DNA of 64,000 nucleotides from Candidatus Nomurabacteria bacterium. GTDB taxonomy: Bacteria; Patescibacteriota; Minisyncoccia; Phycocordibacterales; UBA9973. The notes beneath the pieces are model-generated. The model was not told the origin of the DNA and ran no database searches. It was given only the letters and a program-made list of their open reading frames with translations. The DNA is taken from assembly GCA_943350875.1 (NCBI GenBank), contig CALRAL010000001.1:165017-229016 (forward strand), read 5' to 3'. A program made the position numbers and the translations under genes. Of this stretch, positions 6,678 through 60,654 are shown piece by piece (positions within the stretch are counted from its first letter, which is position 1; each line of letters starts with the position of its first letter).

Positions 6678-6756
6678 GAATTTCAAAAATTTTAAGAGTC
6701 GTGGGTCCCCTGTCCTTGTGTCCCCGAGGGCGAAGGCTCAGAAATTTTTGAAATTC
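6678..6756. repeat. Family-2 MITE-like element: 13-bp TIRs GAATTTCAAAAAT/ATTTTTGAAATTC around a GC-rich core GTGGGTCCCCTGTCCTTGTGTCCCCGAGGGCGAAGGCTC; intergenic dnaX/dus and overlapping the dus stop
   Basis: About 95% identical copy at 48858-48927; related copies at 41129, 60368, 6978 and 37727. Confidence 0.75.
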
Positions 6757-7865
6757 TTCAGCAATAAAAAATCATTAGTTATTTTTTCCACCTCGCTGGC
6801 ATTTTCGGCTCCCATAAGTTTTTCTCGTAATTCTTTTGCACCATCAAAACCATTCACATATGCTTTGTAATGTTTTTTCATTATGGCAAACTTTTTGTAT
6901 TTCCCTAACATTTCTTCAAAAAGTTTTGTGTGCTCTACCATGACTTTTAGTTTTTGTTTAATATTTTGTTCGCTTCGTTCTCTTAAATTTTCTGTCCCTG
7001 CGCCCTTCTCAGAGTACTGAGTGGGACCCTCGGGCGCAGAAAATTCAAGAGAACTTCGCTTACTAAATAGCCATGGATTCCCGAAAATAGCTCTGCCCAA
7101 CATCACCCCATCACAACCATATTCTTCACACTTCCTCCTAGCGTCGTCAGTGTCTACGACATCACCATTGCCGATGATAAGTGTATTTTTATTTATTTCA
7201 TTTCGCATTTCAACTATTCTTGGCATCAAGTCCCAATGCGCAGGAACTTTGGACATCTCTTTACGAGTTCGCAGGTGTACCGTTAGCACAGAAATATTTT
7301 CTTCTAATAAAGTTTTTATCCACTCAACATCCAACAAATGATTATTTTTGCCTGCCCGTCCGAGGACTTTAGGCGAAGGCGGGTTAAAACCAATACGAGT
7401 TTTGACAGAGATCGGTAGACTTGGTGCACCTTCTTTTGCGGCACGAATTATTTCTCTTGCAAGTTTTGGATTCTTTATACAAGCTGCTCCTGCACCTTGT
7501 TTCTCTATGGATTTATCCGGACAACCCATATTTATATCTATTCCATCAAAACCAAGTTCTGCACAAAGAGCTGAAGCCAGCTTTATATTTCCTGGTCTTG
7601 AACCAAATATTTGAGCCACTATCGGATGCTCATTTTCTCCATATTTTAGGTCAATTAAGAGCTTTTCACGTGCTTTTGGGTGTGCAAGGCCATCAGCTGA
7701 CACAAATTCTGTCCAAAATACATCTGGCTTACCATATTTTGCTATTATTTGCCTAAATGCACAATCTGTCACATCTGCCATTGGAGCAAGTACAAAAATA
7801 GGCCTGTTTAATTTTTGCCAAAAGTTTTGCATATTACTTGAATTTGTAATATACCTTATTTCCAA
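6738..7865 (-). CDS. dus: tRNA-dihydrouridine synthase
   Basis: FVLAPMADVTDCAFRQI, catalytic NMGCP and HLRTR motifs; an in-frame MITE-like insertion sits in the C-terminal extension. Confidence 0.85.
   Translation of the reverse strand: MEIRYITNSSNMQNFWQKLNRPIFVLAPMADVTDCAFRQIIAKYGKPDVFWTEFVSADGLAHPKAREKLLIDLKYGENEHPIVAQIFGSRPGNIKLASALCAELGFDGIDINMGCPDKSIEKQGAGAACIKNPKLAREIIRAAKEGAPSLPISVKTRIGFNPPSPKVLGRAGKNNHLLDVEWIKTLLEENISVLTVHLRTRKEMSKVPAHWDLMPRIVEMRNEINKNTLIIGNGDVVDTDDARRKCEEYGCDGVMLGRAIFGNPWLFSKRSSLEFSAPEGPTQYSEKGAGTENLRERSEQNIKQKLKVMVEHTKLFEEMLGKYKKFAIMKKHYKAYVNGFDGAKELREKLMGAENASEVEKITNDFLLLKNFKNF
6978..7053. repeat. Family-2 variant element (TIR GTTCTCTTAAATTTTCTG/CAGAAAATTCAAGAGAAC, core GGGTCCCACTCAGTACTCTG) inserted in-frame in dus (encodes ...EFSAPEGPTQYSEKGAG...)
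   Basis: Core matches the element at 37727-37810 (27/32 nt); 18-bp TIR with one mismatch. Confidence 0.6.
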
Positions 7866-8718
7866 ATCTTAGATCAATATATAAAAGAGAAGAATATTTT
7901 TTCACAAATTCTGCTTGCAAAGGTTCTGTAGACAATATAGTGTCCAAGTTCTCTATTATTTTTTCTGGAATGAAATCTTTTTTGATAATAATCTTTGGTG
8001 AGTCCGCCAAAGATACATTTGATGACAAGTATATATTTATGTCTCCATCATCTCTATATGAAAAAGCAGTCGTTTTTGCTTTTGTTTGTTTTAACAGTTC
8101 TATAAGAGAGGAAATATTTCCAAAATTTTCTTTACTAAAATTATACCCTATTGGATTTTCTAAATTTTCTAATATTCCCCCAAAGAACTTAAAATATACA
8201 TTACCTGAGAAATATGGTGCATTATCAAAGATATATCCATTTTCATCTACAAAATAGCACTTATCTTCTTTAGATTTATCACTGTTTTCATATAGTGTCA
8301 CATCATCTCCACACCAGACATATTTTTTCTCTCTTTCAGTGACATTTATTTCTAAAGTGTCTGTATTTTTTACACTTACAGAAATAGCTTTAAATATTTT
8401 AAATTTGTTTACTAACTCATTTTTGATTTTACTTTTAGGATATAAAACAAAATTTGTCTTAGGGAATAACCACAGATAGTCCCCCTCTATACTCTTTTGA
8501 ACTATTTCTTTTATTTTATCTGTTTCTGTTATTTTATTACCAGAGATTTGTATGTCTATAATATTTATCTTTTGCCACCTCGATAAGAATATGAGGCCAA
8601 CAAATATGATTAAAAAGCAAGAAAAATAAAATAGAATCTTATTTTTCAAAACCGAAATCTTCCTCTTTTTAAGTTTTTGAACTGGCGCAGAATTTAAAAC
8701 AACTTTTTTTTTTATCAT
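7834..8718 (-). CDS. ftsQ: Cell-division protein FtsQ/DivIB-like (TM plus POTRA-like region)
   Basis: Cytoplasmic K-rich N-term, single TM, then a POTRA-like pattern INIIDIQISGNKITETDKIKEIV...; low similarity. Confidence 0.4.
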   Translation of the reverse strand: MIKKKVVLNSAPVQKLKKRKISVLKNKILFYFSCFLIIFVGLIFLSRWQKINIIDIQISGNKITETDKIKEIVQKSIEGDYLWLFPKTNFVLYPKSKIKNELVNKFKIFKAISVSVKNTDTLEINVTEREKKYVWCGDDVTLYENSDKSKEDKCYFVDENGYIFDNAPYFSGNVYFKFFGGILENLENPIGYNFSKENFGNISSLIELLKQTKAKTTAFSYRDDGDINIYLSSNVSLADSPKIIIKKDFIPEKIIENLDTILSTEPLQAEFVKKYSSLLYIDLRFGNKVYYKFK

Positions 8719-8738
8719 TTAATATAAGAATTAAATAA

Positions 8739-10004
8739 CTAAGAAATAAATTCTTTACCACCCATATATTTTCTCAAAACTTCAGGGATTTTTATGGTGC
8801 CGTCTGCTTGCTGGAAGTTTTCAACCATGGAAACCAATATTCGCGGAGTAGGTATCGCAGTGCAATTTAATGAATGAGCATAATTCATTTTCCCAGTTTC
8901 ATCTTTATAGCGTATATTAAAACGTCTAGTTTGAAAATCATGAAAATAAGAAGCTGAAGATATTTCTCTATATTTATTCTCTTTTGGCACCCAGAGTTCA
9001 ATGTCATACTTTTTTACTTGACCCAAACCTAAATCTCCTCCGCAGTTTATTACTGTGTGATATGGAATTTCCAAGGACTCTATAAACTCTTCAGTATTCC
9101 TATTTATTTCCTCGTGCATTTTTACAGAAATTTCATGATTGGCTTCACATAATACAACTTGTTCCATTTTATAAAATTCGTGAACACGAATAAGACCTTT
9201 TGTATCTTTACCGTGACTTCCCGCTTCCCGCCTAAAACAAGGTGAGAATCCCAAGTATTTTAATGGGAATAATTTTTTATCAATAATTTCTCCAGAATAA
9301 AAACCCATTATTGGCACTTCGGATGTTCCAGCTAAATATTCTCCATCTTGAGTTTTGTATAAATCTTCTTCCCCTTGAGGTATAAATCCAGTTCCCAAAA
9401 AAGACTCTTTGCGGTCTATGATTGGTGGGATTATCGGTGTAAATCCTTTATCTGTAAAAAAATCCATAGCATAATTCCATATAGCAAAACAAAGTTTAAC
9501 ACTTTCACCAGTCAAGAAATAACCGCGAAAACCATGCACTTTTATTCCACGTTCAAAATCAACCATTTTGTGCGAGTTCATTATTTCAATATGATCTTTG
9601 GGTTCAAAATTGAATTTTGTTTTCTCACCCCATGTTTTTATTTCTACATTATCTCCATCATCTTTACCTTCTGGTACAGATATATCAGGTATATTTGGTA
9701 TTTGGAGCATCATCTTTTGCCATTCCTCTACAATAGTTTTCAATTTTTCTTCTTTTGCTTTTATCTCTTCTTTTACAGTGCGCATTTCTTCTATTAGTTG
9801 TATTTTGAGTGCAGGATCTTGATCTCGCACAATGTCATTTGAAACCTTGTTTACTTCACTACGAAGGTCTTCTACTTCCTTCAATATTTTCAAACGTTCA
9901 TCATCGAGTTTTATCAATTTTTCAATATCGACTTCCACATGCTTTTTTTTAGCACCTGCTTCTACTATTTCTTTATTTTCTTTTATAAACTTAATATCTA
10001 GCAT
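8739..10004 (-). CDS. serS: Seryl-tRNA synthetase
   Basis: N-terminal coiled coil, class II motif 2 GFSPCFRREAGSHGKDTKGLIRVHEF, motif 3 region. Confidence 0.9.
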   Translation of the reverse strand: MLDIKFIKENKEIVEAGAKKKHVEVDIEKLIKLDDERLKILKEVEDLRSEVNKVSNDIVRDQDPALKIQLIEEMRTVKEEIKAKEEKLKTIVEEWQKMMLQIPNIPDISVPEGKDDGDNVEIKTWGEKTKFNFEPKDHIEIMNSHKMVDFERGIKVHGFRGYFLTGESVKLCFAIWNYAMDFFTDKGFTPIIPPIIDRKESFLGTGFIPQGEEDLYKTQDGEYLAGTSEVPIMGFYSGEIIDKKLFPLKYLGFSPCFRREAGSHGKDTKGLIRVHEFYKMEQVVLCEANHEISVKMHEEINRNTEEFIESLEIPYHTVINCGGDLGLGQVKKYDIELWVPKENKYREISSASYFHDFQTRRFNIRYKDETGKMNYAHSLNCTAIPTPRILVSMVENFQQADGTIKIPEVLRKYMGGKEFIS

Positions 10005-10151
10005 AATGTTTCTATTATATATTATTATTGGTATAATGAAAAGACGGGAATTACTTCTAAAAACCGCATATAATTTTCTGCTGAAAATTTATTATGCTCG
10101 GCTCGTCAGCCTGCGCAATGCTTTTTATAAGTAATTCCCGTCTTTTCATTC

Positions 10152-13682: not shown

Positions 13683-15152
13683 ATGTCAGATATAAAGAAA
13701 ATAGCTGATTTAATAAGTAAAGATATGAGTAAAAAAGATGTAGAGCTCATCACAAAGGCCTATGTTTTTGCAGAGAAAGCTCATACTGGTCAAAAGAGAA
13801 TGAATGGAGAGCCATATTTTTTTCATGTATTTGAAACAGCAAAGATTTTACACAAATTGGGAATGGATGCTAAGACCATCTCAGCTGGGCTGCTGCACGA
13901 TGTTTTAGAAGATACCCAAACAAAAGAAGAAGAAATTAAAAAAGAATTTGGAGATGATATTTTATTTTTAATAAATGGAGTCACTAAGCTTGGCAAATTA
14001 AAGTATCGCGGACACGAACGTCATGTGGAAAGTTTAAGAAAGTTTTTTGTCGCTATCTCAAATGATTTGAGAGTAGTTATAATAAAATTCGCTGACAGGT
14101 TGCATAATTTACGAACTTTAGAGTTTGTGCGTGAAGACAAAAGAAAAAGGATAGCTGTCGAGTCTGTTGAGATATATGCTTCTCTGGCAGATAGATTAGG
14201 GATGGGTAAATTAAAAGGTCAGATAGAAGATGCAGCTTTCCCATACGCTTATCCGAAAGAATATAAGGAGATAGAAGAAATATTAAAAGACAGAATGAGT
14301 TCTTACGAAAAAGATATAAAACAAGTCGGTGAAGAATTGGAAAAAGAATTAAAGAAAAATAAAATCAAATTTATTGAAATATCTTCTAGAATAAAACATA
14401 AATATAGTCTTTGGAAAAAATTGGTTGGTCGTGATATGGATATTAATAAAATATATGACATTGTTGCCTTGTGTGTGGTGGTTAAAAATGTTGAAGATTG
14501 TTATAGAGTTTTAGGTATTGTGCATTCTATTTGGAAACCTTTACCCGGTAGGATCAAGGATTATATAGCTTTTCCAAAACCAAATGGATATAGATCACTT
14601 CACACAACTATTTTAAATGGTTTGGGTGGAGTGGCAGAAATCCAAATAAGGACAGAAGAAATGCATGCAGAAGCTGCTTATGGAATAGCTGCTCATTTTG
14701 CTTATAAAGATTATGACAGTAAAAAGGCCAAAAATGACAAAGAGAAATTCAAATGGATAGAGGAATTGAAAGATTTGAAACATATTCCCAACGACCCTAA
14801 AATATTTTTAGAAAATTTAAAAATAGATTTCTTTAATGATCGTATTTTTATTTTTACTCCCGAAGGCGATGTAGTAGACTTACCAAAGGATTCTAGTCCG
14901 ATAGATTTTGCTTATTCCATACATTCTGACATTGGTGACCATACTTCTGGAGCCAAGATAAATAATAAAATGTCTCACATTTTTTCTAAACTTAAAAACG
15001 GAGATGTGGTAGAAATTATAAATAGACAAGATGCTCATCCATCTAGTAAATGGTTGGAATATACTAAAACAAGCGTAGCAAAAAAGCATATTAAAAATTA
15101 CTTAGAGAAAAATAGCTTGCTCGCCAAACTCAAGTCTTTTGGTCACTCTTAA
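13683..15152 (+). CDS. rel: Bifunctional (p)ppGpp synthetase/hydrolase Rel/SpoT homologue (HD + synthetase + TGS; no ACT domain)
   Basis: HD motif LLHDVLEDT, synthetase motifs DIVALCVVV and GYRSLHTTI, TGS region IFIFTPEGDVVDLPKDSSPIDFAYSIH. Confidence 0.8.
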   Translation: MSDIKKIADLISKDMSKKDVELITKAYVFAEKAHTGQKRMNGEPYFFHVFETAKILHKLGMDAKTISAGLLHDVLEDTQTKEEEIKKEFGDDILFLINGVTKLGKLKYRGHERHVESLRKFFVAISNDLRVVIIKFADRLHNLRTLEFVREDKRKRIAVESVEIYASLADRLGMGKLKGQIEDAAFPYAYPKEYKEIEEILKDRMSSYEKDIKQVGEELEKELKKNKIKFIEISSRIKHKYSLWKKLVGRDMDINKIYDIVALCVVVKNVEDCYRVLGIVHSIWKPLPGRIKDYIAFPKPNGYRSLHTTILNGLGGVAEIQIRTEEMHAEAAYGIAAHFAYKDYDSKKAKNDKEKFKWIEELKDLKHIPNDPKIFLENLKIDFFNDRIFIFTPEGDVVDLPKDSSPIDFAYSIHSDIGDHTSGAKINNKMSHIFSKLKNGDVVEIINRQDAHPSSKWLEYTKTSVAKKHIKNYLEKNSLLAKLKSFGHS

Positions 15153-15180
15153 TTCAGCTAGGCAAGGCCTAGCTGAAAGA

Positions 15181-23555: not shown

Positions 23556-24311
23556 TTATAAAATGGGGACAACTAAAGCCACTGATTCCATTAAGCTTTT
23601 TACTGAAGATCCTGGCTGACGCAAAAATTCTCTGATTTTGAAAAAATGTTTAAAATAAGTAATACCCATATGGAGGGTAGTCCTTGATATTTTATTGTGT
23701 AAAACGCATTCTAAACTGTTTAAAAAACTTATAGCTTTAGAACGAGAGGAATCTCTTTGGCTCTCTTTCCCGATCTCTATAAGGACTCCGACTTTGGTCG
23801 GAGCCTCTTCTTCAGCTAATAATTCTTTTATAAAATTAATTCTGTTCTGTAAAGACATCTTTATAAATTTTTCTGCCTCACCCTCCGCTAGGTCAGACCT
23901 AGCGGAAATAAAATGGAACCGAGATACAACAGTTTTCAAAAGTACATTTACATCAGGAATAATTATATAAAAAAGTGTATTTGGTACAGGGTCTTCAAAA
24001 AGTTTCAAAAGTGCTTGCTCTGCATCTAATGTAAAATTATTGGCACAAATTATAAATATCTTTTTATTTTCAGCCTCGCCCGTAAAGCTATGGCTTAGGG
24101 AAAATCCACTCTGATACGCCATGTCACGCACACTGAAAGCATCATCAATTTTAAAATTATCAATCACCAAATGACATACATCCGGATTATTTAAAACTTT
24201 TATTCCCAAACTTTCCACAAACTCAAAAATCTCAGGCACAACTTTCTCATGTTCGCCTTCTATTAGGTATGCGTGATGATTATTGTTATTTTCTAAATAT
24301 TCTTTTAACAT
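23556..24311 (-). CDS. holB: DNA polymerase III delta-prime-like clamp-loader subunit (no Walker A); carries in-frame palindromic insertions
   Basis: HAYLIEG..., PDVCHLVID, ...IFIICANNFTLDAEQALLKLFEDPVPNTLFYII...VVSRF aligns with HolB TLEEPP/SRC region. Confidence 0.5.
   Translation of the reverse strand: MLKEYLENNNNHHAYLIEGEHEKVVPEIFEFVESLGIKVLNNPDVCHLVIDNFKIDDAFSVRDMAYQSGFSLSHSFTGEAENKKIFIICANNFTLDAEQALLKLFEDPVPNTLFYIIIPDVNVLLKTVVSRFHFISARSDLAEGEAEKFIKMSLQNRINFIKELLAEEEAPTKVGVLIEIGKESQRDSSRSKAISFLNSLECVLHNKISRTTLHMGITYFKHFFKIREFLRQPGSSVKSLMESVALVVPIL
23783..23805. repeat. Palindrome GGACTCCGAC-TTTG-GTCGGAGCC inside the holB-like CDS
   Basis: In-frame (EEAPTKVGVL); related to the hairpin at 19348. 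Confidence 0.4.
23885..23905. repeat. REP-like palindrome CCGCTAGGTC-AGA-CCTAGCGG, a variant of the RAYT-flanking REP, inside the holB-like CDS
   Basis: Same stem as 61292, 62189, 62891 and 63503; in-frame (ISARSDLAEGE). Confidence 0.6.
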
Positions 24312-30170: not shown

Positions 30171-30186
30171 ACATTTTTCTCTTTAT

Positions 30187-30224
30187 TCCCCGCCTGCAAC
30201 GCTATGCGTAGCATTGCGGGCAGG
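30187..30224. repeat. Family-1 palindrome copy 2 (intergenic atpA/atpG)
   Basis: CCCCGCCTGCAACGCTATGCGTAGCATTGCGGGCAGG. Confidence 0.75.
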
Positions 30225-30262
30225 TTCTTTTAATTTCTTTCGTTGATGCCATAAATAATTTT

Positions 30263-33043: not shown

Positions 33044-33931
33044 TTATACCACTCCCTGTGTTAATTTTTGGTGTTCGTGACTCTCCCCGCCTGCATCGTT
33101 ATGCGAAGCATTGCGGGCAGGCTCGTGATCGTGATCACTTGATGAAATCGTAAAGTAAACCACGAGCAGCATAGAGAATATCAAAGCTTGAATAAATCCA
33201 ACCAATATCTCAAGAAACAAGAACGGGATAGGCACAACATAAGCCACAAGCGCTGATATTGAGACCAAAAGCACTTCCCCAGCAAAAATGTTTCCAAAAA
33301 GACGGAAAGAAAGCGATGCTATTTTTGCCACTTCTCCAGCTATTTCTATCAAACCAACAAAGAACGTAATAGGAGCTACGATTATAACTGTTGGCTCCTT
33401 TTTTATCTTGGTAAAGATACTACCAAGCACACTCAGATTAACATATTTATTAAAAGTTTTCCATATACCTACGGATACTACACCAAACAAATTCGCACCG
33501 ATAACAGCTGACACTGCCAGAGCTAAAGTCGTGTTCACATCTGCCGTCCCTCCACGCAAAAACGGGATGAAGGATTTTATTCCTTCGTGGTTTTCAATGA
33601 GTCCAAAGCCTCCAAGTGGTATAAGTCCAAGCCAATTATTTACTAAAATAAAAAAGAAAACAGAGATAGCCATGGGGAAAATCCTGATAGAAAGAGCTCT
33701 ATCATTCGTTACTTGATCACACATAGATAAAGCTCCTTCTGCAAAAACCTCAAAAACGTTCTGAATTCCCTTTGGAATTTCTTTTAATTTACGACGGAGA
33801 AAAATTGAAATGATAACGATAACTGCCACAGCTACCCAGCTTGTTATAAGAGCATTGGTGATATGAAAACTACCAAAATCAGTTATTTTTTCTGCGAATA
33901 TTGTTGTTTCGTGTAATATTTTTTCTTTCAT
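33044..33931 (-). CDS. atpB: Fo ATP synthase subunit a; C-terminus carries an in-frame Family-1 insertion (PARNASHNDAGG)
   Basis: Conserved Arg helix SFRLFGNIFAGEVLL. Confidence 0.85.
   Translation of the reverse strand: MKEKILHETTIFAEKITDFGSFHITNALITSWVAVAVIVIISIFLRRKLKEIPKGIQNVFEVFAEGALSMCDQVTNDRALSIRIFPMAISVFFFILVNNWLGLIPLGGFGLIENHEGIKSFIPFLRGGTADVNTTLALAVSAVIGANLFGVVSVGIWKTFNKYVNLSVLGSIFTKIKKEPTVIIVAPITFFVGLIEIAGEVAKIASLSFRLFGNIFAGEVLLVSISALVAYVVPIPFLFLEILVGFIQALIFSMLLVVYFTISSSDHDHEPARNASHNDAGGESHEHQKLTQGVV
33085..33121. repeat. Family-1 palindrome copy 3 (inside the atpB 3' end)
   Basis: CCCCGCCTGCATCGTTATGCGAAGCATTGCGGGCAGG. Confidence 0.75.
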
Positions 33932-34221
33932 AAATTCTTATTTTTTTCCCCGCCTGCATCGCTATGCGAAGCATTGCGGGCAGGTATCGAATCTTGTCTC
34001 TCTAATTTTATTTTATATTTTTTTACAGTTTTGACAATACCATAAGCTGAAAGTAAAAAAGATAAAATTATTAGTATAAAAAATATCCAAGGCTTGGTAT
34101 TGTATTTATTATCTAAATATTTTCCAATAATCAAAGCCAAAATTACGGGCACAATAATCCATGTGGATATGTCGCTAAATATTTGAACTCCTGTTTTCCA
34201 CCATATATCATTTTTACCCAT
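33928..34221 (-). CDS. Small two-TM protein at the head of the atp operon (AtpZ/AtpI-like), C-terminus extended by a Family-1 insertion
   Basis: Start trimmed to MGKNDIWW because the ORF-track N-extension overlaps a tRNA; two hydrophobic helices; position. Confidence 0.4.
   Translation of the reverse strand: MGKNDIWWKTGVQIFSDISTWIIVPVILALIIGKYLDNKYNTKPWIFFILIILSFLLSAYGIVKTVKKYKIKLERQDSIPARNASHSDAGGEKNKNL
33948..33984. repeat. Family-1 palindrome copy 4 (3' end of the atpZ-like gene, at the atpB start)
   Basis: CCCCGCCTGCATCGCTATGCGAAGCATTGCGGGCAGG. Confidence 0.75.
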
Positions 34222-36734: not shown

Positions 36735-37706
36735 TTACTCTTCGTCTTCACTACCTGTCTCGCCAGACTCAAGTGAAGATATTATTTCACTCATATCGCC
36801 TTCCATTATCTTTGGCAGATTATGCCAAGATTTCTTTATACGGTGATCAGTGATACGATCTTGCGGAAAATTATAAGTACGAATTTTCTCTGACCTATCA
36901 CCTGAACCTATCTGGTCTTTGCGGGTACCTGCATATTTCTTTGCTTCTTCCTCTTCTTTTAACGCTTGGATTTTAGCGGTCAAAATAGTCATCGCTTTTT
37001 CACGGTTTGCGAGCTGACTGCGTTCGTTTGTAGACCTCACATCGAGCCCTGTCGGCTTGTGGATAAGGCGTACAGCAGTTTCCACTTTGTTCACATTTTG
37101 CCCGCCTTTACCACCGGAGCGTGAATATTCCATTTCCAAATCTGCAGGATTTATCACAAAGGAAACTTTCTTCTTAATTGGAAGCACTGCCACAGATGCA
37201 GTAGAAGTATGCACCCTGCCATTCTTTTCAGTTGCAGGAATTCTCTGTACTCGATGAACCCCAGTCTCATAACGCATTTTCTTGTACACATCTTTACCTT
37301 TTATTTCAAAACTCGCTTCTTTAAAACCGTTCAGGTCACTTTTTGATTCATAATTTACTTTCCAGTCCCATCGCTGCGTTTCAGCAAATTTCTCATACAT
37401 ATGTGCAAGTTCCCAGGCAAAAAGTGAAGCCTCGTCACCTCCAGCTCCAGCTCGCACTTCAAGCACTATTTCATTTGGAAATTCCTCCTCTTCTTTATCC
37501 TTGTCTAAAATCTCTTGAATATTCTTTTCTGTATTCTCCCTCTGTTCTTCTATATTCTTTAATTCACCCTCAACCATTTCATGTAAAGTTCCATCATTTT
37601 TTAGTATTTCACACACTTCTTTTTCCTCACGATCTAATCGCTCTAAAATATCTGCTAGATAACTAGTCTTGTGATTCTTCTTAAGTTCTTCTAAATCAAA
37701 TGACAT
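36735..37706 (-). CDS. prfA: Peptide chain release factor 1
   Basis: GGQ motif [18 protein letters not shown] and RF1 tripeptide PAT; acidic C-terminal extension. Confidence 0.85.
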
Positions 37707-37726
37707 AAAATTATCAAAAAAATAAA

Positions 37727-37810
37727 AAGCCTCCTAAAATTTTTCGCTCCTGAAGGGTCCCAACCAGTACTCTGGGAAGGGCGTAGGGACGGAAAATTTC
37801 AGGAGGCTTT
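37727..37810. repeat. Family-2 variant element with 18-bp TIRs AAAGCCTCCTAAAATTTT/AAAATTTCAGGAGGCTTT around core GGGTCCCAACCAGTACTCTGGGAAGGGCG; also acts as a terminator-like hairpin between rpmE and prfA
   Basis: Core matches the in-dus element at 6978. Confidence 0.65.
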
Positions 37811-37815
37811 GTTTT

Positions 37816-38034
37816 TTACTTCTTAACTTTTGCAGAGGCAGCTCGGCGCTTATTGAAACGATCAACACGTCCAGCTGTATCCATTATCTTTTCATTGCCA
37901 GTATAAAAAGGATGACATTGACTACAGATTTCTATTTTAACTTCAGGCATAGTAGAACCCACTTCAAAAGTAGCTCCACAAGCACAGGTAGCCTTTGTTT
38001 TTAAATCATATTTTGGATGGATATCTTTTTTCAT
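37816..38034 (-). CDS. rpmE: 50S ribosomal protein L31
   Basis: MKKDIHPKY...CxC...C..CHPFYTG. Confidence 0.85.
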
Positions 38035-38057
38035 ATTTTTTATATGTTATCACAATT

Positions 38058-39401
38058 TTAACTCGAAAGCAAATCTATATTATCCTGTATGCTTTTTGCT
38101 TTTTTCATTACATTATCACCATAGAAAGCATTAGCTTTCTTTTTCCAATTAGCACCAGCATAATATTTAAGGGCAGCCGTTCGTTCAGCCGTATAACCCC
38201 CATTATTAGCGCCTAATTCTTCTAGGTATATAGAAGTAGCAAAAAATGCATCCCTCGGCTCCCAAGGGTTCGGCATCCCACCGATAACCAAAGCACTGGC
38301 TATTTTATCCGCATAAAGTTCCCAAGTTGAAGGAATAAATTGCGAAGGACCCATCGCTCCACCCCAGCCCCCATGCCAAGGACAAGAAAGTGGTACAGAA
38401 TACGGATTAAGCCCTAAGGCCGAAGTTATTCGTTGAAACGGCGCTATATCCCTATCTGGTTTCATTATATATTTCCAACTTTTCTCTGTTCCATCACCCA
38501 AGCGATTACAGGTCCCAACATTTTCTCCTAAATTTGTCTCTTGAGTTAGAATTGCAAGCACAAATGCTGAACGGACACCTGTTTTAGCTTCTGCTTCTTT
38601 AGCATATTGGAGAGCAGTACCGAAAGGAATAGCTTTTGTATCTCGAAGGGCAAATAGCGCAGCGCGTATTTTATCTGCTCTGGCTTTTTTCTCAGCCACC
38701 AGTTTTTGATAAGAATCTTCTTTTTGTTTACTGACAGCGAGTAAAAGTTTCTTTTCAGCTTCAGTTTGAGCAACTTTTTTCTGAGTATTTTCTAATTCTA
38801 CTTTTGCATCCGTCTCAGCATTTTGTTTTATTTCTAAATCTTTTTTCTCCGCTTCTGTTTGAGTTTTTATTCCCATTATTCTATCTACGGATATCTTCAC
38901 TGCTTGTTTTATGGAAGCATATGATTCTAAATCACTATAAAAAGCTTGCAAGCTATCATCAGAAAAAATAAAGTAAACAAAATCTTTATTATCAAAATCA
39001 TTTGTATTGCGAAGGAGTTGAGCGATAGATTCATATTGTTTATCTATCCTATCTGACAGAGTATCTATCTTCAAAACTTTTTCTTTAATAGAAAGTTTTA
39101 ACTGAGCAATAACTAAAGTGCGGGCCTTTACTTTAGCTTTAAGGGCATTAATCTGGCTAGTCAAATAATTCACATCGCCTTTTAATGTTCCAGTTTGTTT
39201 ATTTTGTTCTTTTAGTTGAGCTTCTAGATTCGCTTGTTCTTGCAAAAGCTGATTTAGTTCATTCTGGCAATAATCTTTATCTGATTGTGGAGAAGCAATA
39301 TTAAGATTTAAACAATCAAATACCGCATGTGCATTTTGCGTTTTTGTAAGAAAAAATAATAAAAATACAACAAAAAAAGTAATGGCATTCTTTTTTACCA
39401 T
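38058..39401 (-). CDS. Secreted coiled-coil protein with C-terminal lytic-transglycosylase-like domain
   Basis: Signal peptide, about 250-aa coiled coil, then AILTQETNLG (catalytic-Glu-like) and aromatic-rich C-term; family-level call only. Confidence 0.4.
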   Translation of the reverse strand: MVKKNAITFFVVFLLFFLTKTQNAHAVFDCLNLNIASPQSDKDYCQNELNQLLQEQANLEAQLKEQNKQTGTLKGDVNYLTSQINALKAKVKARTLVIAQLKLSIKEKVLKIDTLSDRIDKQYESIAQLLRNTNDFDNKDFVYFIFSDDSLQAFYSDLESYASIKQAVKISVDRIMGIKTQTEAEKKDLEIKQNAETDAKVELENTQKKVAQTEAEKKLLLAVSKQKEDSYQKLVAEKKARADKIRAALFALRDTKAIPFGTALQYAKEAEAKTGVRSAFVLAILTQETNLGENVGTCNRLGDGTEKSWKYIMKPDRDIAPFQRITSALGLNPYSVPLSCPWHGGWGGAMGPSQFIPSTWELYADKIASALVIGGMPNPWEPRDAFFATSIYLEELGANNGGYTAERTAALKYYAGANWKKKANAFYGDNVMKKAKSIQDNIDLLSS

Positions 39402-40121: not shown

Positions 40122-40156
40122 AAAAATATTATATAGGAAAATTAAAAAAATGCAAA

Positions 40157-42037
40157 TTATCCCTTGTTATTTAAGTGAGGATATTCCGCGGTTAGGTTGT
40201 TAACTATGTATTCTTTCGTACCAGCTTGGGAATCCGAGAGAGCTATCTTTTTACCAGGGTTAAAAATATTTTGCGGGTCGAAAATATTTTTAACCTGTTT
40301 GAACAAATCGCAAATGGATTTACCATACATTTTTTCTAAGTAAGGTGTACGGATCAGGCCGTCATTGTGTTCTGCTGTTATTGAACCGCCGAGCCGTATG
40401 ACCAAGTCATACACTTTTTCTGACACGTTCATAATTTCATCTTCTAATTCGACATCTTTTGGATCAAGCAATGTATAAATATGCATATTACCATCACCAG
40501 CATGTCCGCCTACAGCAAAAGTCATTTTCTTCTTATACTCTCCGAGTATTTTATAAAGTGCTGGAAAAAATTCTGGTAACTTTTCCGGACGTACTATTAC
40601 ATCATCTATAAATGGTTCAGACTTTGATTTTTTTAGGTGATAGCGAATAAGATTGAAAGCTTCATGCCGAATAGTCCAGTATTTTTTCATTTCAAAATCA
40701 TTTTTTGCCAAGTGTAAACCAATTTTTTTTACATTGCTTAATTCTCTTAATGCATCTTCTGCGCTTTCATTAGCTTCTGCTTCAGTATCCCCAGTAAATT
40801 CAACTAACAGAATCAACTTAGGAAAACCATACCGTAACGTCATTATAGCTTCCGGTCCAAAACTAAAAATGAGTTTGAAGAAATTTTTTAAACCTAAAAG
40901 GTTAGCAAAACTCACTATGTATTTTAATACGAGCAAAAAAGTCTTGTCATCGTAAGATTCGAGTGTTTGAGGATTATATTTTAAAATCTTATTCACCAAG
41001 TCAGGAACTATTGTCATATCTCTTAAAAAAACTACCACTAATTTTGTGTATGGTTTTGGTTTCACTAGACGAAAAGTAATTTCTGTGGCTATACCTAAAG
41101 TCCCTTGCGAACCTACTAGCAACTTATTGAGATCAAAATTCAAAGAATTTGAGGAGCCGTGGGTCCCCTGTCCTGTGTCTCCGAGGGCGAAGGCGGGCAA
41201 ATTCTTTGAATTTTGATCGATGACATTCCAAATGTAATAGCCAGCAGAATTCTTGTGAACTTTTGGTTTTGCATTTTTTATCTTTGTTTCATTATTTTTT
41301 ATTAATTCGTAAATGTTTTTATAAATATTTCCTTCAAAATCATTCTGCGCTATTTTCTGTTTTAATTCTCCTTCATTTAATGGTTTTACCATATATTCAT
41401 TCCCATCTTCAAAAACAACTCTGGTTTCCATTATATAATCCTCAGTTTTTCCATATTTCAAAGTCCTTTCACCAGCAGAATTGTTACCAAACATTCCACC
41501 CATAGCATTCAGGCTCTTTGAGGCAGTATAACAAGGTAAAATTAAACCTTTTTCTAAAGTTATTTTTTCAAAATCCCTATAAAACATCCCCGGTTGGACG
41601 GTAATGGAATTTATTCCCCTCTTGAGGGGTGGCTCAGTAATCTGAGACGGGGTGGAAAATGTGTCCACCTCCCCCTGCGGGTACTCCTCAAGAGGAGAAT
41701 TTAAATTCTTTACAGGAAAACTGATTAGCTTATTCATATACCTCGTAAAATCTAAAATTATAGATTCACCTATAGACCCACCAGACATATCCGTCCCTGC
41801 ACAACGAGCAGTGATTGAGAGGTTAGAATACAAACCCCCTGAATCCCCCTTGTCAGGGGGACTATTTTTTTTCTCATTTACCCATTTTACAAGATTTTTC
41901 ACATCTTCAGAATCTTTTGGAAAAGCAACCACTTTAGGCCGTATCTCAAAAATACTGGCATCGTGAGAATACTTTGTCAGTGTTTCCTCACTATCCTCCA
42001 CATCCCCTTTGAAAAATTTTTGTATTTCTGATTTCAT
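40157..42037 (-). CDS. FAD-linked oxidase/dehydrogenase (GlcD/D-lactate dehydrogenase-like) carrying several GC-rich insertions
   Basis: PCMH-type FAD-binding region ...ARCAGTDMSGGSIG...; C-terminal FAD-oxidase domain; in-frame MITE at 41129-41218. Confidence 0.6.
   Translation of the reverse strand: MKSEIQKFFKGDVEDSEETLTKYSHDASIFEIRPKVVAFPKDSEDVKNLVKWVNEKKNSPPDKGDSGGLYSNLSITARCAGTDMSGGSIGESIILDFTRYMNKLISFPVKNLNSPLEEYPQGEVDTFSTPSQITEPPLKRGINSITVQPGMFYRDFEKITLEKGLILPCYTASKSLNAMGGMFGNNSAGERTLKYGKTEDYIMETRVVFEDGNEYMVKPLNEGELKQKIAQNDFEGNIYKNIYELIKNNETKIKNAKPKVHKNSAGYYIWNVIDQNSKNLPAFALGDTGQGTHGSSNSLNFDLNKLLVGSQGTLGIATEITFRLVKPKPYTKLVVVFLRDMTIVPDLVNKILKYNPQTLESYDDKTFLLVLKYIVSFANLLGLKNFFKLIFSFGPEAIMTLRYGFPKLILLVEFTGDTEAEANESAEDALRELSNVKKIGLHLAKNDFEMKKYWTIRHEAFNLIRYHLKKSKSEPFIDDVIVRPEKLPEFFPALYKILGEYKKKMTFAVGGHAGDGNMHIYTLLDPKDVELEDEIMNVSEKVYDLVIRLGGSITAEHNDGLIRTPYLEKMYGKSICDLFKQVKNIFDPQNIFNPGKKIALSDSQAGTKEYIVNNLTAEYPHLNNKG
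41129..41218. repeat. Family-2 MITE with perfect 21-bp TIRs GATCAAAATTCAAAGAATTTG/CAAATTCTTTGAATTTTGATC inserted in-frame in the FAD-oxidase gene (LPAFALGDTGQGTHGS)
   Basis: Core GTGGGTCCCCTGTCCTGTGTCTCCGAGGGCGAAGGC matches 6678 and 48858. Confidence 0.7.
41615..41700. repeat. Cluster of GC-rich hairpins (CCCCTCTTGAGGGG, CTCCTCAAGAGGAG, ...) inside the FAD-oxidase CDS
   Basis: Seen directly; a second one, CCCCCTGA..TCAGGGGG, lies at 41835-41863. Confidence 0.4.
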
Positions 42038-48393: not shown

Positions 48394-48843
48394 CTAGAAA
48401 AGTGTATCAACTATTTCTTTTACAAGAGTTCCATCGGCCTTGCCTTTTAGATCTTTCATCACGGACGACATCAGCATTCCCTTTTTAGAAATATCATTTA
48501 CACCCAATTCATTTTTCTTATTTTTAATTATATTTTCAACTTCACTCCTACCCATCATTTTTGGTAGATAGGTCTCTAATATTGCAAGTTCGGCTTCTTC
48601 TTCTTTTACCAGGTCTTGCCTGTTACCTTTTTTGAACTGCTCTATAGAGTCCTTCCTTTGTTTAGCAAGACGAGTTATCACAGTTATAGCTTCTTCATCT
48701 GTAAGCATCTCATTTGGCTTTCTATTTTTAGCCACCAACTCATTCGTAAAACCGGCCACCATAGCTCGCACAGCTCTGAGCTTTACCTCGTCACGCGCCA
48801 TCATGGCTTCTTTAACACTATTTTTTATTTGTTCATGTAGCAT
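48394..48843 (-). CDS. GatB/YqeY-domain protein
   Basis: 149 aa, ...EEAITVITRLAKQRKDSIEQFKKGNRQDLVKEEEAELAILETYLP. Confidence 0.75.
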   Translation of the reverse strand: MLHEQIKNSVKEAMMARDEVKLRAVRAMVAGFTNELVAKNRKPNEMLTDEEAITVITRLAKQRKDSIEQFKKGNRQDLVKEEEAELAILETYLPKMMGRSEVENIIKNKKNELGVNDISKKGMLMSSVMKDLKGKADGTLVKEIVDTLF

Positions 48844-48857
48844 AAGTACGTTTAAAG

Positions 48858-48927
48858 AATAAAAATTTTAAGAGTCGTGGGTCCCCTGTCCTTATGTCCC
48901 CGAGGGTGAAGGCTCAGAAATTTTTGA
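48858..48927. repeat. Family-2 MITE-like element, near-identical to 6678-6756 (intergenic)
   Basis: AAAATTTTAAGAGTCGTGGGTCCCCTGTCCTTATGTCCCCGAGGGTGAAGGCTCAGAAATTTTTGA. Confidence 0.75.
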
Positions 48928-48971
48928 TTTTTTATAAGTACATTATATCAAAAGTATGTTAAAATAGCCAA

Positions 48972-49706
48972 ATGAGCAAAATAATATTTTTTGACACGGA
49001 AACAACAGGAAATACCGAGAAAGATTTCTTGGTACAAATAGCATATAAAAATGGCAATGAGAATTTCGTAGAATTATACAAACCACCGATCAAAATCCCT
49101 CCTGAAGCTTCTGCTGTACACCATATATCAAACAAAATGGTAGAAAATAAAATGCTATTTAGTGAAAGTAAAGATTCTAAAAAAATAAAAGTACTTTTTG
49201 AAAACCCTGAAAGTGTGTTGGTAGCTCACAACACTCCCTTTGACCTGATGATTATCAAAAAAGAAGGTATCAACCCTGCCAGATTTATCTGCACGCTCCG
49301 CCTTACTCGATATTTAGATAAAGAAGGAAAAATCGAAAAGTATAATATGCAGTATTTGCGTTATCTATGGGAGATAGAGATAGAAGCCACTGCGCACGAT
49401 GCCCTGGGAGATGTTTTGGTGTTAGAAAAGATATTTGAGAAATTAAAAAAAGATTTAATGAAAAGTGAGAATTTAGATGAGGACAAAGCAATAGAAAAAA
49501 TGATAGAAATATCTTCCCACCCTTCATTATTCAAGAAAATAAATTTCGGAAAATACGCAGGGCAAGAAGTAGCCTCTGTAGTACAAAATGATCCGAAGTA
49601 TCTAGAATGGCTTCTCGGAGAGAAACTCAAAAGCGATCAGATAGACGAAGACTGGATTTATACGTTAAAATATTATTTAACCCCTAATAATAAATTAAAT
49701 TTTTAA
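48972..49706 (+). CDS. DEDD-family 3'-5' exonuclease (DnaQ/epsilon-like)
   Basis: Exo I IIFFDTETTG, Exo II VAHNTPFDL, Exo III HDALGD. Confidence 0.7.
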   Translation: MSKIIFFDTETTGNTEKDFLVQIAYKNGNENFVELYKPPIKIPPEASAVHHISNKMVENKMLFSESKDSKKIKVLFENPESVLVAHNTPFDLMIIKKEGINPARFICTLRLTRYLDKEGKIEKYNMQYLRYLWEIEIEATAHDALGDVLVLEKIFEKLKKDLMKSENLDEDKAIEKMIEISSHPSLFKKINFGKYAGQEVASVVQNDPKYLEWLLGEKLKSDQIDEDWIYTLKYYLTPNNKLNF

Positions 49707-50769: not shown

Positions 50770-50770
50770 T

Positions 50771-59279: not shown

Positions 59280-59640
59280 TTTTTATATTACCAAAAGGAT
59301 CATTCCCCATTTTGAGGCCAACAGACTTTTTTGTAGCAAATGTCGTCTTTATCTCTTTAAAACCAAGTGCATATGAAGTAGGAAGATCTACCTTACTAGA
59401 TAATGACAAATAATTGAGCTCTAAATCCCCGACTTCGTTTGAAAGAGCTCTGGCTTGTGTCTCAAAAGTCCTTCTTTCTACTATGTTAAAGACCATATTT
59501 GCAAGGATGACTACATATACAAGACCCAAAACACCCATAGATAGAAGCATAAAACGAAACATCTTCTCCCTGAGATGAGTATCATTCATCACATCTATAT
59601 TCCCAGCATAATTCTTTATTTTTAAACTTATTTGTTTCAT
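59260..59640 (-). CDS. ftsL: FtsL-like small bitopic division protein
   Basis: 126 aa, single TM (FMLLSMGVLGLVYVVILANMVF) then a coiled coil; position between rsmH and ftsI. Confidence 0.45.
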   Translation of the reverse strand: MKQISLKIKNYAGNIDVMNDTHLREKMFRFMLLSMGVLGLVYVVILANMVFNIVERRTFETQARALSNEVGDLELNYLSLSSKVDLPTSYALGFKEIKTTFATKKSVGLKMGNDPFGNIKIAKNEI

Positions 59641-59738
59641 TTTTTTTATTATTTTTTATATTTTTTATATTTTTTATATTTTTTATATTTTTTATATTTT
59701 TTATATTTTTTATATTTTTTATATTTTTTATATTTTTT
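59641..59738. repeat. Tandem array of about 10 copies of the 9-mer TTTTTTATA between rsmH and ftsL
   Basis: Direct reading: ttttttata repeated head-to-tail from about 59652 to 59732 with degenerate flanking copies. Confidence 0.85.
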
Positions 59739-60654
59739 CCAAAACTCTTAATTTTGCACTTCGAGATCTTGGATTTTCTTTTATTTCTTTTTCGCTTGCT
59801 GTGATTATTCTTTTATTAATTAATTTTGCTTTGCCTTCTTTTTCTTTATTTTTATAAAATTTCTTTACTATCCTATCTTCTAAACTATGAAATGAAATAA
59901 CTGACATCCTGCCCCCACTTTTTAAAATTTCAAATCCACCTTTTAAACCTTCTTCCAATACTCTCAATTCATCATTTACTGCTATGCGTATCGCTTGGAA
60001 AGTCCTCGTCGCAAAGTGTAGTCTGCCTCTCCTGTACACTGCTGGGACCGAATCACTGATAATTTTTACTAAATCAAATGTAGTCTTTATCTCTGTCTTT
60101 GATCTAGCCTCCACTATCCCCTTTGCTATCCTTCTAGCAAACTTTTCCTCTCCATAGCCGTAAATGATATCTGCTAAGCTTTCTTCGCTCCAACTGTTTA
60201 CTACGTCATATGCTGTCACTTCATCTGAAAGCGGATTTTCTTTCTCTGAATCTTTACCTGAATTTTGCATTTGCATGAGCAATGGCTCATCTTTCATGAA
60301 AGAAAATCCGCGCCCAGAATTCTCTAATTGATCACTACTCAAACCTAAATCGAAAATGATTCCACTTATGTCTCCGAGGGCGAAGGCGCCGAAATCTTTT
60401 AAATTTTTCAGGTGCCTAAAGTTGATATTAATAAAAGTGATATTACAATCAAGACCTTTAAATTTACTTTTCGCTTTCTCAAATGCGCTAGCATCTTGAT
60501 CAATGGCAATTATCTTTACTTTTGGAAATCTTTTACAAATCTCCAAACTGTGCCCTCCTCCACCAAATGTGGCATCCACTACCACACTGTTTGATTTCAA
60601 GTTCAACCCCTCTATTGTTTCATTTAAAAGAACTGTCTTGTGAATACTTTCCAT
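59728..60654 (-). CDS. rsmH: 16S rRNA (cytosine1402-N4)-methyltransferase RsmH/MraW (carries a partial Family-2 element in-frame)
   Basis: SAM site VVDATFGGGGHS; dcw position after mraZ. Confidence 0.85.
   Translation of the reverse strand: MESIHKTVLLNETIEGLNLKSNSVVVDATFGGGGHSLEICKRFPKVKIIAIDQDASAFEKAKSKFKGLDCNITFININFRHLKNLKDFGAFALGDISGIIFDLGLSSDQLENSGRGFSFMKDEPLLMQMQNSGKDSEKENPLSDEVTAYDVVNSWSEESLADIIYGYGEEKFARRIAKGIVEARSKTEIKTTFDLVKIISDSVPAVYRRGRLHFATRTFQAIRIAVNDELRVLEEGLKGGFEILKSGGRMSVISFHSLEDRIVKKFYKNKEKEGKAKLINKRIITASEKEIKENPRSRSAKLRVLEKI
60368..60412. repeat. Half-copy of the Family-2 element (TGTCTCCGAGGGCGAAGGCGCCGAAATCTTTTAAATTTTTCAGG) inside rsmH (FGAFALGDISG)
   Basis: Matches the 3' half of 6678 and 41129. 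Confidence 0.55.

Follow-up and report, generated by a model that had tools for sequence, protein, structure and literature searches.

Introduction

The closest described counterparts of the repeats analysed here are the RPEs of Rickettsia. According to what Ogata et al. are said to have reported in 2000–2002, these are short elements of a reduced, AT-rich genome, many of them lying in unrelated housekeeping genes and others between genes. To our knowledge, no transposase is known for any of RPE-1 to RPE-10. The GC clusters and double-hairpin elements of fungal mitochondria are likewise GC-rich palindromic mini-inserts in an AT-rich genome; they occur in protein genes as well as elsewhere, form several families and can be nested. 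RPEs have been described as in-frame palindromic insertions (PMC10969869), and the identity of their repeats is reported to be lost over time (PMC6649704). The byp elements of fungal mitochondria are mentioned in the same source, as are coding palindromes of Nematomorpha mitochondria, for which arm conversion or template switching was proposed to keep the arms identical (PMC6649704). Some MITEs also lie occasionally in frame inside genes, according to PMC10969869 (see also PMC5896051).

No description of in-frame palindromic elements in the candidate phyla radiation was found in the literature searched. Here we analyse such elements, termed family 2, in a 64 kb stretch of a Candidatus Nomurabacteria genome (the window) and in related genomes. 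The parallel with Rickettsia RPEs drawn in an earlier note on this DNA proved apt. These are dispersed, non-coding repeated palindromes whose presence or absence differs at orthologous sites.

Results

Copies in the window

The earlier note had placed six copies in the window. All six were confirmed at those places, and a covariance model built from variant A and scanned over the window for completeness recovered exactly these six in 64 kb, with nothing else above noise; the three full A copies scored 82–93 bits. The core GTGGGTCCCCTGTCC occurs at 6701, 41159 and 48877 (chance expectation 0.14), CCGAGGGCGAAGGC at 6724, 41181, 48900 (one mismatch) and 60374, and the variant B sequence GGGTCCCAnCCAGTACTCTG at 37755 (plus strand) and 7010 (minus strand; chance expectation 0.00). 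Folding as single-stranded DNA gave z values of −4.5 to −7.1 in four of the five full copies.

The first variant A copy (6675..6759, plus strand) is an 85-bp hairpin whose arms, GAAGAATTTCAAAAATTT and AAATTTTTGAAATTCTTC, form 18 Watson-Crick pairs with 0 mismatches (folding z = −4.7; 93.3 bits). It had been called intergenic. A dispersed copy does lie there, but not purely between genes: the dus ORF (6738-7865, minus strand) ends within its right arm, and the last three dus codons (KNF) and the stop codon are supplied by the element (…LLKNF-KNF*). Its reported near-identity to the variant A copy at 48854..48933 (plus strand) was borne out at 97% over 67 nt (6685-6751 versus 48861-48927), which makes the two close relatives; the resemblance between copies, which might have vanished under proper alignment, persisted. 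The 48854..48933 copy is intergenic, with a YqeY-like gene (48394-48843, minus strand) on one side and a divergently oriented RNase T-like gene (48972-49706, plus strand) on the other. Deletions of 3 nt and 2 nt have degraded the arms of this copy in comparison with the 6675 copy (z = −0.6; 86 bits).

A third variant A copy (41131..41218, plus strand) lies inside an FAD-binding oxidase gene (40157-42037, minus strand) and reads DQNSKNLPAFALGDTGQGTHGSSNSLN in antisense. The perfect 21-bp inverted repeat claimed for it is present, with 41131-41151 pairing with 41198-41218 (z = −7.1; 82.2 bits). The truncated variant A copy inside rsmH (60365..60408, plus strand; gene at 59728-60654, minus strand) retains the 3′ half of the core and the right arm, reads KDFGAFALGDI in antisense and scored 19.6 bits.

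Variant B is represented twice. The copy inside dus (6972..7059, minus strand) has a solid hairpin at 6977-7054 (78 nt, 26 codons), with a model match at 6978-7053 on the minus strand (30.8 bits, E = 1e-4) and a folding z of −6.7; its sense reading, EFSAPEGPTQYSEKGAGTENL, sits in the linker that joins the TIM barrel to the helical domain. The other (37719..37817, plus strand) takes up the entire spacer that separates rpmE (37816-38034, minus strand) from prfA (36735-37706, minus strand), antisense to both, with a model match at 37730-37806 on the plus strand (23.7 bits, E = 0.007). Its description as terminator-like did not hold, as canonical terminator geometry, in which a short GC-rich stem with a loop of 3–8 nt runs straight into a T-run, was absent and no such site was found in 37500-38100. 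For the family at large, an intrinsic terminator was also rejected as an identity, many copies lying inside reading frames.

Family architecture

Each copy is a hairpin with a median length of 94 nt. The conserved part consists of an asymmetric GC-rich centre with 13–18 nt on each side, and variants A and B have the scaffold GGGTCCC…GA(A)GGG in common; B copies were scored by the A model in collinear orientation. Beyond ~18 nt from the core the information content is ~0, yet arm complementarity continues. The A arms comprised 1745 Watson-Crick pairs versus 134 mismatches, with a median of 23 bp against 8 bp in a control in which arms of different copies were paired with each other; for B the medians were 22 bp and 7 bp. 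The hairpin is capped by a loop in A and by a stem-loop in B, where the stem covaries (CAG/CTG, CGG/CCG, CCG/CGG and CTG/CAG).

In searches against Rfam 15, tRNAs alone passed the gathering threshold in the window, and the elements had no family match at that threshold or at E values up to 10. The best sub-threshold match over 6640-7080 was SmY, whose 22.8 bits fell short of the threshold of 39.

Terminal inverted repeats combined with a conserved core had been taken as the signature of a non-autonomous transposon. A classical MITE would have arisen by deletion from an insertion sequence and would depend for its movement on a DDE transposase acting in trans, one that binds the terminal repeats and leaves target-site duplications. 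Family 2 resembles such elements in its small size, its many non-coding copies, its inverted-repeat arms and its insertion polymorphism. However, conservation is central, while the termini differ and each copy has outer arms of its own.

Intragenic copies and orthologous sites

Long open frames contain 38–40 of the ~80 copies of A and 82 of the 102 copies of B. The frame was open through every intragenic copy and differed from gene to gene, A using the three antisense frames and B all six, and these copies fall in variable or low-confidence loops. In the window, the in-frame read-through reported inside dus, the FAD oxidase gene and rsmH was verified, and the peptides quoted for it (LPAFALGDTGQGTHGS, EFSAPEGPTQYSEKGAG and FGAFALGDISG) were correct.

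Orthologue alignments of Dus and the FAD oxidase showed lineage-specific insertions in variable loops, as had been suggested; the segments are missing from many orthologues. At the FAD oxidase site, about half of 120 orthologues have no insert and read NVVKDNIFDLNK; the remaining ones carry A, B or other inserts. The Dus linker, where the insert was placed relative to the solved structure 1vhn, is empty in ~20% of orthologues, holds B in P0159 and P0175 and hosts more than 10 other insert families in the alignment. The AlphaFold model of Dus has a mean pLDDT of 89.5, with values of 51–53 over the B insert (residues 261-280). For rsmH, the proposed insertion stood in part: over a stretch of 47 nt the DNA matches the element at 85% identity, but it replaces a native variable segment and the net gain in length is only ~2 residues relative to solved RsmH structures. 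Full A copies occupy the same site in at least five other species (L021, L030, L060, L062, L080 and L081).

These comparisons bear on the possibility that the intragenic segments are ancestral protein sequence whose nucleotide similarity is convergent or due to chance. The nearly native length of the RsmH segment speaks for this explanation. However, close orthologues of Dus and the FAD oxidase lack the inserts, the reading frame of the same nucleotides changes from one protein to another, the cores have a chance expectation of 0–0.14 matches, and the rsmH site holds both element-like DNA and, in other species, complete copies. The orthologue alignments have already refuted the ancestral reading, and we give it practically no credence.

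The permissive positions comprise gene junctions and, in each protein, two or three surface loops; different families have occupied them repeatedly and independently, in different orientations. The rpmE-prfA junction, for example, measures 0–1 nt in L057 and L079, holds A in L074 and L084 and holds an inverted A in L011. The site orthologous to 48854..48933 is empty in L041.

Distribution and evidence for mobility

The exact variant A core was scanned across 185,579 species genomes. It was found at 84 genome loci, all in Nomurabacteria, Paceibacterota or Patescibacteria bins except for 5–6 chance matches in GC-rich genomes; this amounts to ~80 occurrences over ~50 Nomurabacteria/Paceibacterota genome bins. 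Variant B was found at no fewer than 120 metagenome loci. Variant A had no match in viral contigs.

Seven cases allowed filled and empty orthologous sites to be compared, and in all six that aligned cleanly the empty site lacked both arms. Nesting was also observed, with a second hairpin within the A core in L053 and L085. No donor copy sharing the outer arms was found within the same assembly, the bins being incomplete.

Target-site duplications and an autonomous partner with matching ends, both proposed as checks, were sought. The longest direct repeats flanking 74 copies followed the same distribution as mismatched pairs of left and right flanks, which indicates that target-site duplications are absent. 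The 48854..48933 copy does lie between 8-bp direct repeats, ATAAGTAC, which could be claimed for a MITE; this is the single 8-mer among the 74 copies, with 0.9 expected by chance. No longer element, split core or pair of cores bounding a gene was found in the window or at 79 loci, and no DDE transposase is present among the annotated genes of the 90-kb contig. Together with the central conservation, these results make a classical MITE very unlikely.

The sole transposase-like gene of the window encodes a Y1/RAYT protein (62215-62871). It is flanked by another hairpin family (62188-62211 and 62889-62912), and no family 2 copies flank it or its homologues in L028 and L039, which are bordered by other, species-specific hairpins. 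In a comparison with PATE (IS200/IS605-derived), the missing target-site duplications and the strand bias were compatible, while neither separate left-end and right-end hairpins nor a linked TnpA was seen.

Strand bias and conservation in place

Variant A copies are oriented antisense to transcription at a ratio of 38:2 within genes and 21:1 between genes. In 8 of 9 cases, ~5 of them independent, the bias seems to go with the host gene and not with the majority of local genes. A neutral, purely selfish model does not predict a strand bias linked to transcription.

In syntenic copies, the flanks were 70–84% identical, the inner arms were 91% identical and the core was almost unchanged; the arms covaried, while the loop and flanks diverged. 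Model scores in 572 kb were bimodal, at 59–97 bits for A and 27–39 bits for B-like copies, with none in between. Pure junk would be expected to show a continuum of decay, so its absence points to selection on the nucleic acid, gene conversion or rapid turnover.

The same observations could indicate a host-functional structured nucleic-acid motif dispersed in the genome, with selfish spread secondary or absent. Such a motif could act in the RNA of operon transcripts, as a stabiliser, processing site, protein-binding site or attenuator, or as a strand-preferring DNA site. An invariant core with covarying arms, the lack of decayed copies at 40–59 bits, the antisense orientation both in and between genes, and intergenic copies that fill tight operon junctions such as rpmE-prfA all agree with it. 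However, at least half of the copies are putatively translated parts of unrelated proteins in varied frames, and close relatives vary at the same site between presence, absence and other families, which argues against a site-specific role. Among the arm mismatches, G:U pairs are not enriched on the transcribed strand, where 22 occur; the opposite strand has 47, and a further 65 mismatches are of other kinds. Neither an Rfam match nor canonical terminator geometry at 37727 was obtained. We consider a primary host function unlikely, though a good deal less so than a classical MITE.

Discussion

Family 2 is probably a selfish, RPE-like hairpin superfamily restricted to Nomurabacteria/Paceibacterota (Patescibacteria) rather than a classical MITE. 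The elements would behave as selfish DNA, the complete hairpin being copied as a unit, and the recognition determinant would reside in the central core displayed by the stem, not at the termini. Given this architecture and the missing target-site duplications, a cut-and-paste DDE transposase is a poorer fit than a mechanism that works on single-stranded DNA or hairpins. Candidate movers would be an HUH/Y1-type nuclease or template switching during replication.

Insertions that break the frame or strike constrained parts of a protein would be purged, and the in-frame, putatively translated copies would be those that remain, as with Rickettsia RPEs. Judging from the reading frames, translation of the intragenic copies is a simpler reading than bypassing, because every one of them is open and in frame.

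A more far-reaching proposal is that these elements form a previously undescribed class of bacterial hairpins, recognised, like the nick sites of HUH replication origins, at a conserved asymmetric centre, with an arbitrary stem, free of target-site duplications, strand-biased relative to transcription and with a centre near-invariant in place across species. We put this forward only tentatively and regard it as somewhat doubtful. If true, these elements and their sister families would account for much of the length variation in Paceibacteria housekeeping proteins, and they could reflect a new mechanism of transposition or conversion, or a dual-use motif exploited by the host at the RNA or DNA level.

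Until now, in-frame palindromic selfish DNA has been known as an oddity of Rickettsia and a handful of other lineages; family 2 would extend it on a large scale to the candidate phyla radiation. It would explain why the same small set of loops makes the lengths of Nomurabacteria orthologues differ by tens of residues. Loop insertions of this kind matter for annotation, structure prediction and phylogenomics of Nomurabacteria genomes, and they provide a natural experiment revealing which protein loops tolerate insertion. With an architecture that misfits the usual MITE model, the family also offers a concrete system in which hairpin-based mobility or maintenance can be tested.

Comparison with known systems

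Bacterial MITEs such as Correia/CREE, ERIC, BOX/RUP, Coxiella QMITE and Nezha are, like family 2, small non-autonomous hairpin-forming repeats. They have terminal inverted repeats conserved across the family, they make target-site duplications, and in many cases a cognate insertion sequence exists; family 2 showed none of these three features.

REP/REPIN sequences with their RAYT proteins share GC-rich hairpins at gene junctions, the lack of target-site duplications and a movement thought to be single-stranded, and the source genome has its own RAYT and REP family. However, family 2 elements are 2–4 times longer than a REP, at least half of them are intragenic, and the pattern of conservation is reversed: REPIN arms are conserved and the loop varies. 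Membership in REP, defined as extragenic imperfect palindromes of 20–40 nt with conserved stems, was rejected for elements of ~94 nt that occur within genes and have unconserved stems.

The fungal mitochondrial elements resemble family 2 as scattered GC-rich palindromes with nesting, in an organelle rather than a free bacterial genome. Translational bypassing skips over the byp elements, which therefore need no frame, whereas intragenic family 2 copies are in frame. Nematomorpha mitochondria similarly maintain near-perfect inverted repeats inside translated genes; there the palindromes are the gene's own conserved sequence with no shared core, whereas family 2 consists of inserted units with a common centre.

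The likeness to Rickettsia RPEs as described in the literature lies in in-frame palindromes within unrelated genes that are compatible with the protein fold. RPEs are translated as extra surface peptides, and here too the genome is reduced and AT-rich and no transposase was found for the elements. Family 2 differs in belonging to an unrelated lineage, the Patescibacteria, in its length (~94 nt versus 100–150 nt) and in showing a strong antisense bias and no decay continuum. Its conservation lies in an asymmetric centre carried on copy-specific stems, and many families share the same few loops.

Six Copies in the Window

The window is AT-rich (32–40% G+C), and the variant A core GTGGGTCCCCTGTCC of family 2 occurs in it at 6701, 41159 and 48877, compared with a mean of 0.14 matches in shuffled sequence. 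The variant A motif CCGAGGGCGAAGGC lies at 6724, 41181 and 60374, and with one mismatch at 48900. The variant B core was found at 37755 on the plus strand and at 7010 on the minus strand, with 0.00 matches expected. Run over the window with filters off, a covariance model trained on 78 copies of variant A returned exactly the six elements located in the earlier note, at 6675, 6972 (dus), 37719 (rpmE-prfA junction), 41131 (FAD oxidase), 48854 and 60365 (rsmH half-copy); the remainder was weak AT-rich hairpin noise. The three A copies scored 82–93 bits, the two B copies, in collinear orientation, 30.8 and 23.7 bits, and the rsmH half-copy 19.6 bits. In single-stranded DNA folding, four of the five copies that are full-length proved far stabler than shuffled sequence, with z between −4.5 and −7.1; the copy at 48854, termed 48850, has degraded arms (z = −0.6).

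Positions 6685–6751 and 48861–48927 share 97% identity across 67 nt. Once deletions of 3 nt and 2 nt are allowed, the 6675 and 48850 copies are homologous into their outer arms; in this pair the arms moved together with the element. The 6675 copy had been described as intergenic, which needs correction: the dus reading frame enters it, and the element provides the last three codons and the stop.

Structure of the Hairpin

Each copy of the family is one long hairpin, with a median base-to-base length of 94 nt (range 74–130). The variant A consensus is AAAAATTTTAAGAGTCGT-GGGTCCCCTGTCC-loop-GnCTCCGAGGG-CGAAGGCTCAGAAATTTTT, and its four subtypes differ at the inner stem. In A the GC-rich centre is conserved together with some 18 nt to either side of it; beyond this the information content of the outer arms is close to zero, yet pairing continues for another 8–20 bp. 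The "TIRs" of the earlier note are therefore stems specific to each copy, flanking a conserved asymmetric centre, rather than conserved termini. Over all copies, the A arms contain 1745 Watson-Crick pairs, 47 G:T, 22 A:C, 65 other mismatches and 46 bulges. The median number of pairs per copy was 23 for A and 22 for B, compared with 8 and 7, respectively, in a control pairing the left arm with the right arm of another copy.

The apical stem of variant B, C-N-G/TACT/C-N'-G, covaries (CAG/CTG, CGG/CCG, CCG/CGG and CTG/CAG). The two variants are related, being collinear on alignment with GGGTCCC…GA(A)GGGCG.AGG in common. Rfam searches gave no support for a ribozyme, HDV-like or otherwise, as prompted by GGGUCCC…GGCGNAGGGAC; no family matched family 2 either at the gathering threshold or at E values up to 10.

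Distribution

The window lies on the metagenome contig ENA ERZ27280321 k141_283857 and is also present in Logan ERR5863125; its proteins are 56–75% identical to ones named Candidatus Nomurabacteria, Paceibacterota or Patescibacteria. Scanning one genome per species for the variant A pattern GGGTCCCCTGTCC-N5-9-CCGAGGG yielded 84 loci across 185,579 species. Five are evident chance matches in GC-rich genomes (50–77% G+C) and a few further ones lie on AT-rich contigs in bins labelled otherwise; all the rest belong to Nomurabacteria, Paceibacterota or Patescibacteria bins. The variant B pattern GGGTCCCNNNCNGTACTCNGNGAAGGG gave at least 120 metagenome loci, with 102 distinct copies among the matches listed. 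The family is much larger than the window alone suggests. The variant A core was not found in viral contigs, and full-text literature searches, whose coverage was not exhaustive, returned no description of such elements in Patescibacteria.

Copies Inside Genes

Long open frames contain 38–40 of the roughly 80 A copies, and the frame stays open through the element in all of them. The frames in which A is read number three, all antisense (AFALGDxGQGTH, ETAPSExKGQGTH and LSLRPRSHKDRGPTT). Variant B is intragenic in 82 of the 102 distinct copies among the matches listed and uses all six frames. Predicted element-encoded peptides include AFALGDxGQGTH, SGLTLPGVPGGTH and PEGPTQYSEKGAG, and those quoted in the earlier note proved correct on translation. 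Because several frames are used in both variants, the conserved feature is the nucleotide sequence and not the peptide.

Alignments of Dus and FAD-oxidase orthologues showed the insert present or absent by species at the same loop. About half of 120 FAD-oxidase orthologues have no insert and read NVVKDNIFDLNK, and roughly a dozen have A; further ones contain SGLTLPGVPGGTH (variant B in antisense, as in loci L024 and L011 from other genomes) or other inserts. In 50 of the 120, a second loop, which follows residue 109, is longer by 8 residues or more, with A and B copies among the inserts. The window gene, on the minus strand, holds two further GC-rich palindromic inserts: TCCCCCTGACAAGGGGGA at 41835–41868, encoding PPDKGDSGG, and a composite of about 90 nt at ~41620–41710, containing CTCCTCTTGAGGAG and CCCCTCAAGAGGGG and encoding SPLEEYPQGEVD…EPPLKRG.

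About 20% of orthologues have nothing inserted in the Dus linker NPWLFxx|IPSLxEKL. The linker contains B in orthologues P0159 and P0175 and a B-like insert with another apical part in five more. More than ten further insert families follow NPWLF in different species of the set P0121–P0240 (e.g., ISKSNLSGAAAPANFSARQPAKGFS, HENFLLKIFSVRRRHSSQGFSQ, SKFLQVLGSPRDYTRPDHSEIL and VLKKSLGRSDGDGQRKF), which suggests that the lineage harbours a great many kinds of such element. Relative to the solved structure 1vhn, the insert falls between the barrel and the helical domain; the AlphaFold model has a mean pLDDT of 89.5, with only 51–53 at residues 261–280. Elsewhere in dus (minus strand, 7340–7385), CCGCCTTCGCCTAAAGTCCTCGGACGGGCAGGC encodes PPSPKVLGRAG, an insert found in 26 of 120 orthologues (pLDDT ~60) that probably represents an older element from a different family.

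In RsmH, LKDFGAFALGDISG stands in place of the native segment, which reads …VLEKEGKREVDG… in the closest representative. At the nucleotide level it matches the right half of A with 85% identity, and a full A occupies the same site in six other loci (L021, L030, L060, L062, L080 and L081) and is missing from L020; the window copy is thus a deletion remnant. The half-copy claimed for rsmH holds as element-derived DNA within the gene, and the protein changes in length by only about two residues. Directly 3' of rsmH, where the next gene begins, the 9-nt unit TATTTTTTA is repeated in tandem about ten times (59640–59740).

Insertion, Turnover and Arm Evolution

Filled and empty sites were compared by anchoring loci on their flanks. 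Six of seven orthologous pairs aligned cleanly, and in these the entire hairpin with both outer arms is missing at the empty site. These clean pairs include L004 versus window 7828–7840, L024 versus window 40148–40164, L022 versus L047, L086 versus L044, and the window 48850 copy versus L041. The six empty sites contain neither arm, which for these cases rules out that the outer arms were palindromes already in place or arose by inverted copying of the flank. A search for arms taken from the flank of another copy in the same genome yielded nothing beyond low-complexity 11-mer matches, in incomplete bins; exact-core copies of one assembly, other than 6675/48850, did not have outer arms in common, again in incomplete bins.

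The earlier note had proposed a search for target-site duplications. Flanking direct repeats were no longer than in mismatched controls in a family-wide test, and hence there is no duplication; ATAAGTAC, a direct repeat of 8 bp that brackets the 48850 copy, had looked promising, but the family as a whole matches the null. For the FAD-oxidase copy, reconstructing GATCAAAATTTTGATC with duplication of AATT is speculation.

The rpmE-prfA junction is a hot spot. It measures 0–1 nt in L057 and L079, and holds variant A in L074 and L084, an inverted A with similar arms in L011, and variant B in the window. Swapping of cores in place on kept arms is ruled out at hot spots: A and B arms at one site are unrelated, making these independent insertions or replacements of the whole element. 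Syntenic A pairs were accepted only if their flanks were identical at a level of about 0.74 or above, or if their arms were homologous. Some clearly syntenic pairs have common arms (identity 0.78 in flanks, 0.80 in outer arms, 0.91 in inner arms); in others the arms are unrelated or the subtypes differ. Stem pairs had changed on both sides in 13/36 and 8/36 cases in orthologous sets, and uncompensated changes in close relatives comprised two T:G pairs (L013) and one C:A (L017).

A second small GC hairpin sits within the A core in L053 and L085. This 20-nt sequence, CCTGCCTGYCGGTAGGCAGG (L053 ~6090–6110), is related to the GC-rich hairpin family CCCCGCCTGCATCGCTATGCGAAGCATTGCGGGCAGG, with window copies at 592–635, 30182–30225, 33079–33122 and 33942–33985. 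In L044, positions 407–523 hold a different element with GGGTCGCCTGTAC, two mismatches from the A motif, at a site that carries A in five relatives; a similar 13-mer at window 44817, inside gatB, is probably due to chance.

Strand Bias and Absence of a Decay Series

Variant A is antisense to its host gene in 38 cases and sense in 2. Around intergenic A copies, the two neighbouring genes both lie opposite to the element in 21 cases and both share its strand in a single case. Variant B has a weaker bias (64:18 among the matches listed). With host genes that oppose their neighbours as a crude proxy, 8 of 9 A copies kept the antisense orientation relative to the host (about five of these cases being independent), which favours transcription over replication as what the bias tracks.

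Covariance scores over 572 kb of loci were 59–97 bits for A, including six copies missed by the exact pattern, and 27–39 bits for B-like copies, with none between. Copies identified by synteny only have 1–3 core changes versus a flank difference of 17–30%. The missing decay series and the nearly unchanged cores imply nucleic-acid selection, gene conversion or fast replacement. The hairpin may have a host-level role, as RNA or DNA, for which both the conservation of copies in place and the strand bias speak. Together with the origin of the copy-specific arms, the strand bias and the absent decay series go beyond a simple selfish model.

Candidate Partner and Comparison with Known Systems

The autonomous partner with matching TIRs envisaged in the earlier note did not emerge: in the window and in 79 loci, no half-cores were split by a gene or bounded a larger element. 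The contig encodes a 218-aa Y1_Tnp protein (62215–62871, minus strand; PF01797, E = 3e-9) of the IS200-like/RAYT type. It is flanked by inverted CCGCTAGGTCTTTCCTAGCGG hairpins (62188–62211 and 62889–62912), which are also dispersed at 61287–61316, 63498–63527, 15150–15179 and 23880–23909. Homologues in L028 (5271–5912) and L039 (1257–1922) have their own, different flanking hairpins. The gene and CCGCTAGGTCTTTCCTAGCGG are a standard RAYT/REP pair in a Patescibacteria genome, showing that hairpin-processing HUH enzymes exist in the lineage. As a partner of family 2 this RAYT was rejected, being unlinked to it and flanked by another hairpin family.

Family 2 is best explained as a lineage-specific superfamily of hairpin elements. 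Whole hairpins would be copied without target-site duplication, with recognition presumably through the conserved centre, and the copies that survive would be those at gene junctions and those lying in frame within permissive loops. A classical MITE, as first proposed, is defined by conserved termini, target-site duplication and a partner element, tests that family 2 fails, and it fails those of REP/RAYT membership as well. The likeness to Rickettsia palindromic elements drawn in the earlier note is borne out: family 2 works as they do (PMC10969869).
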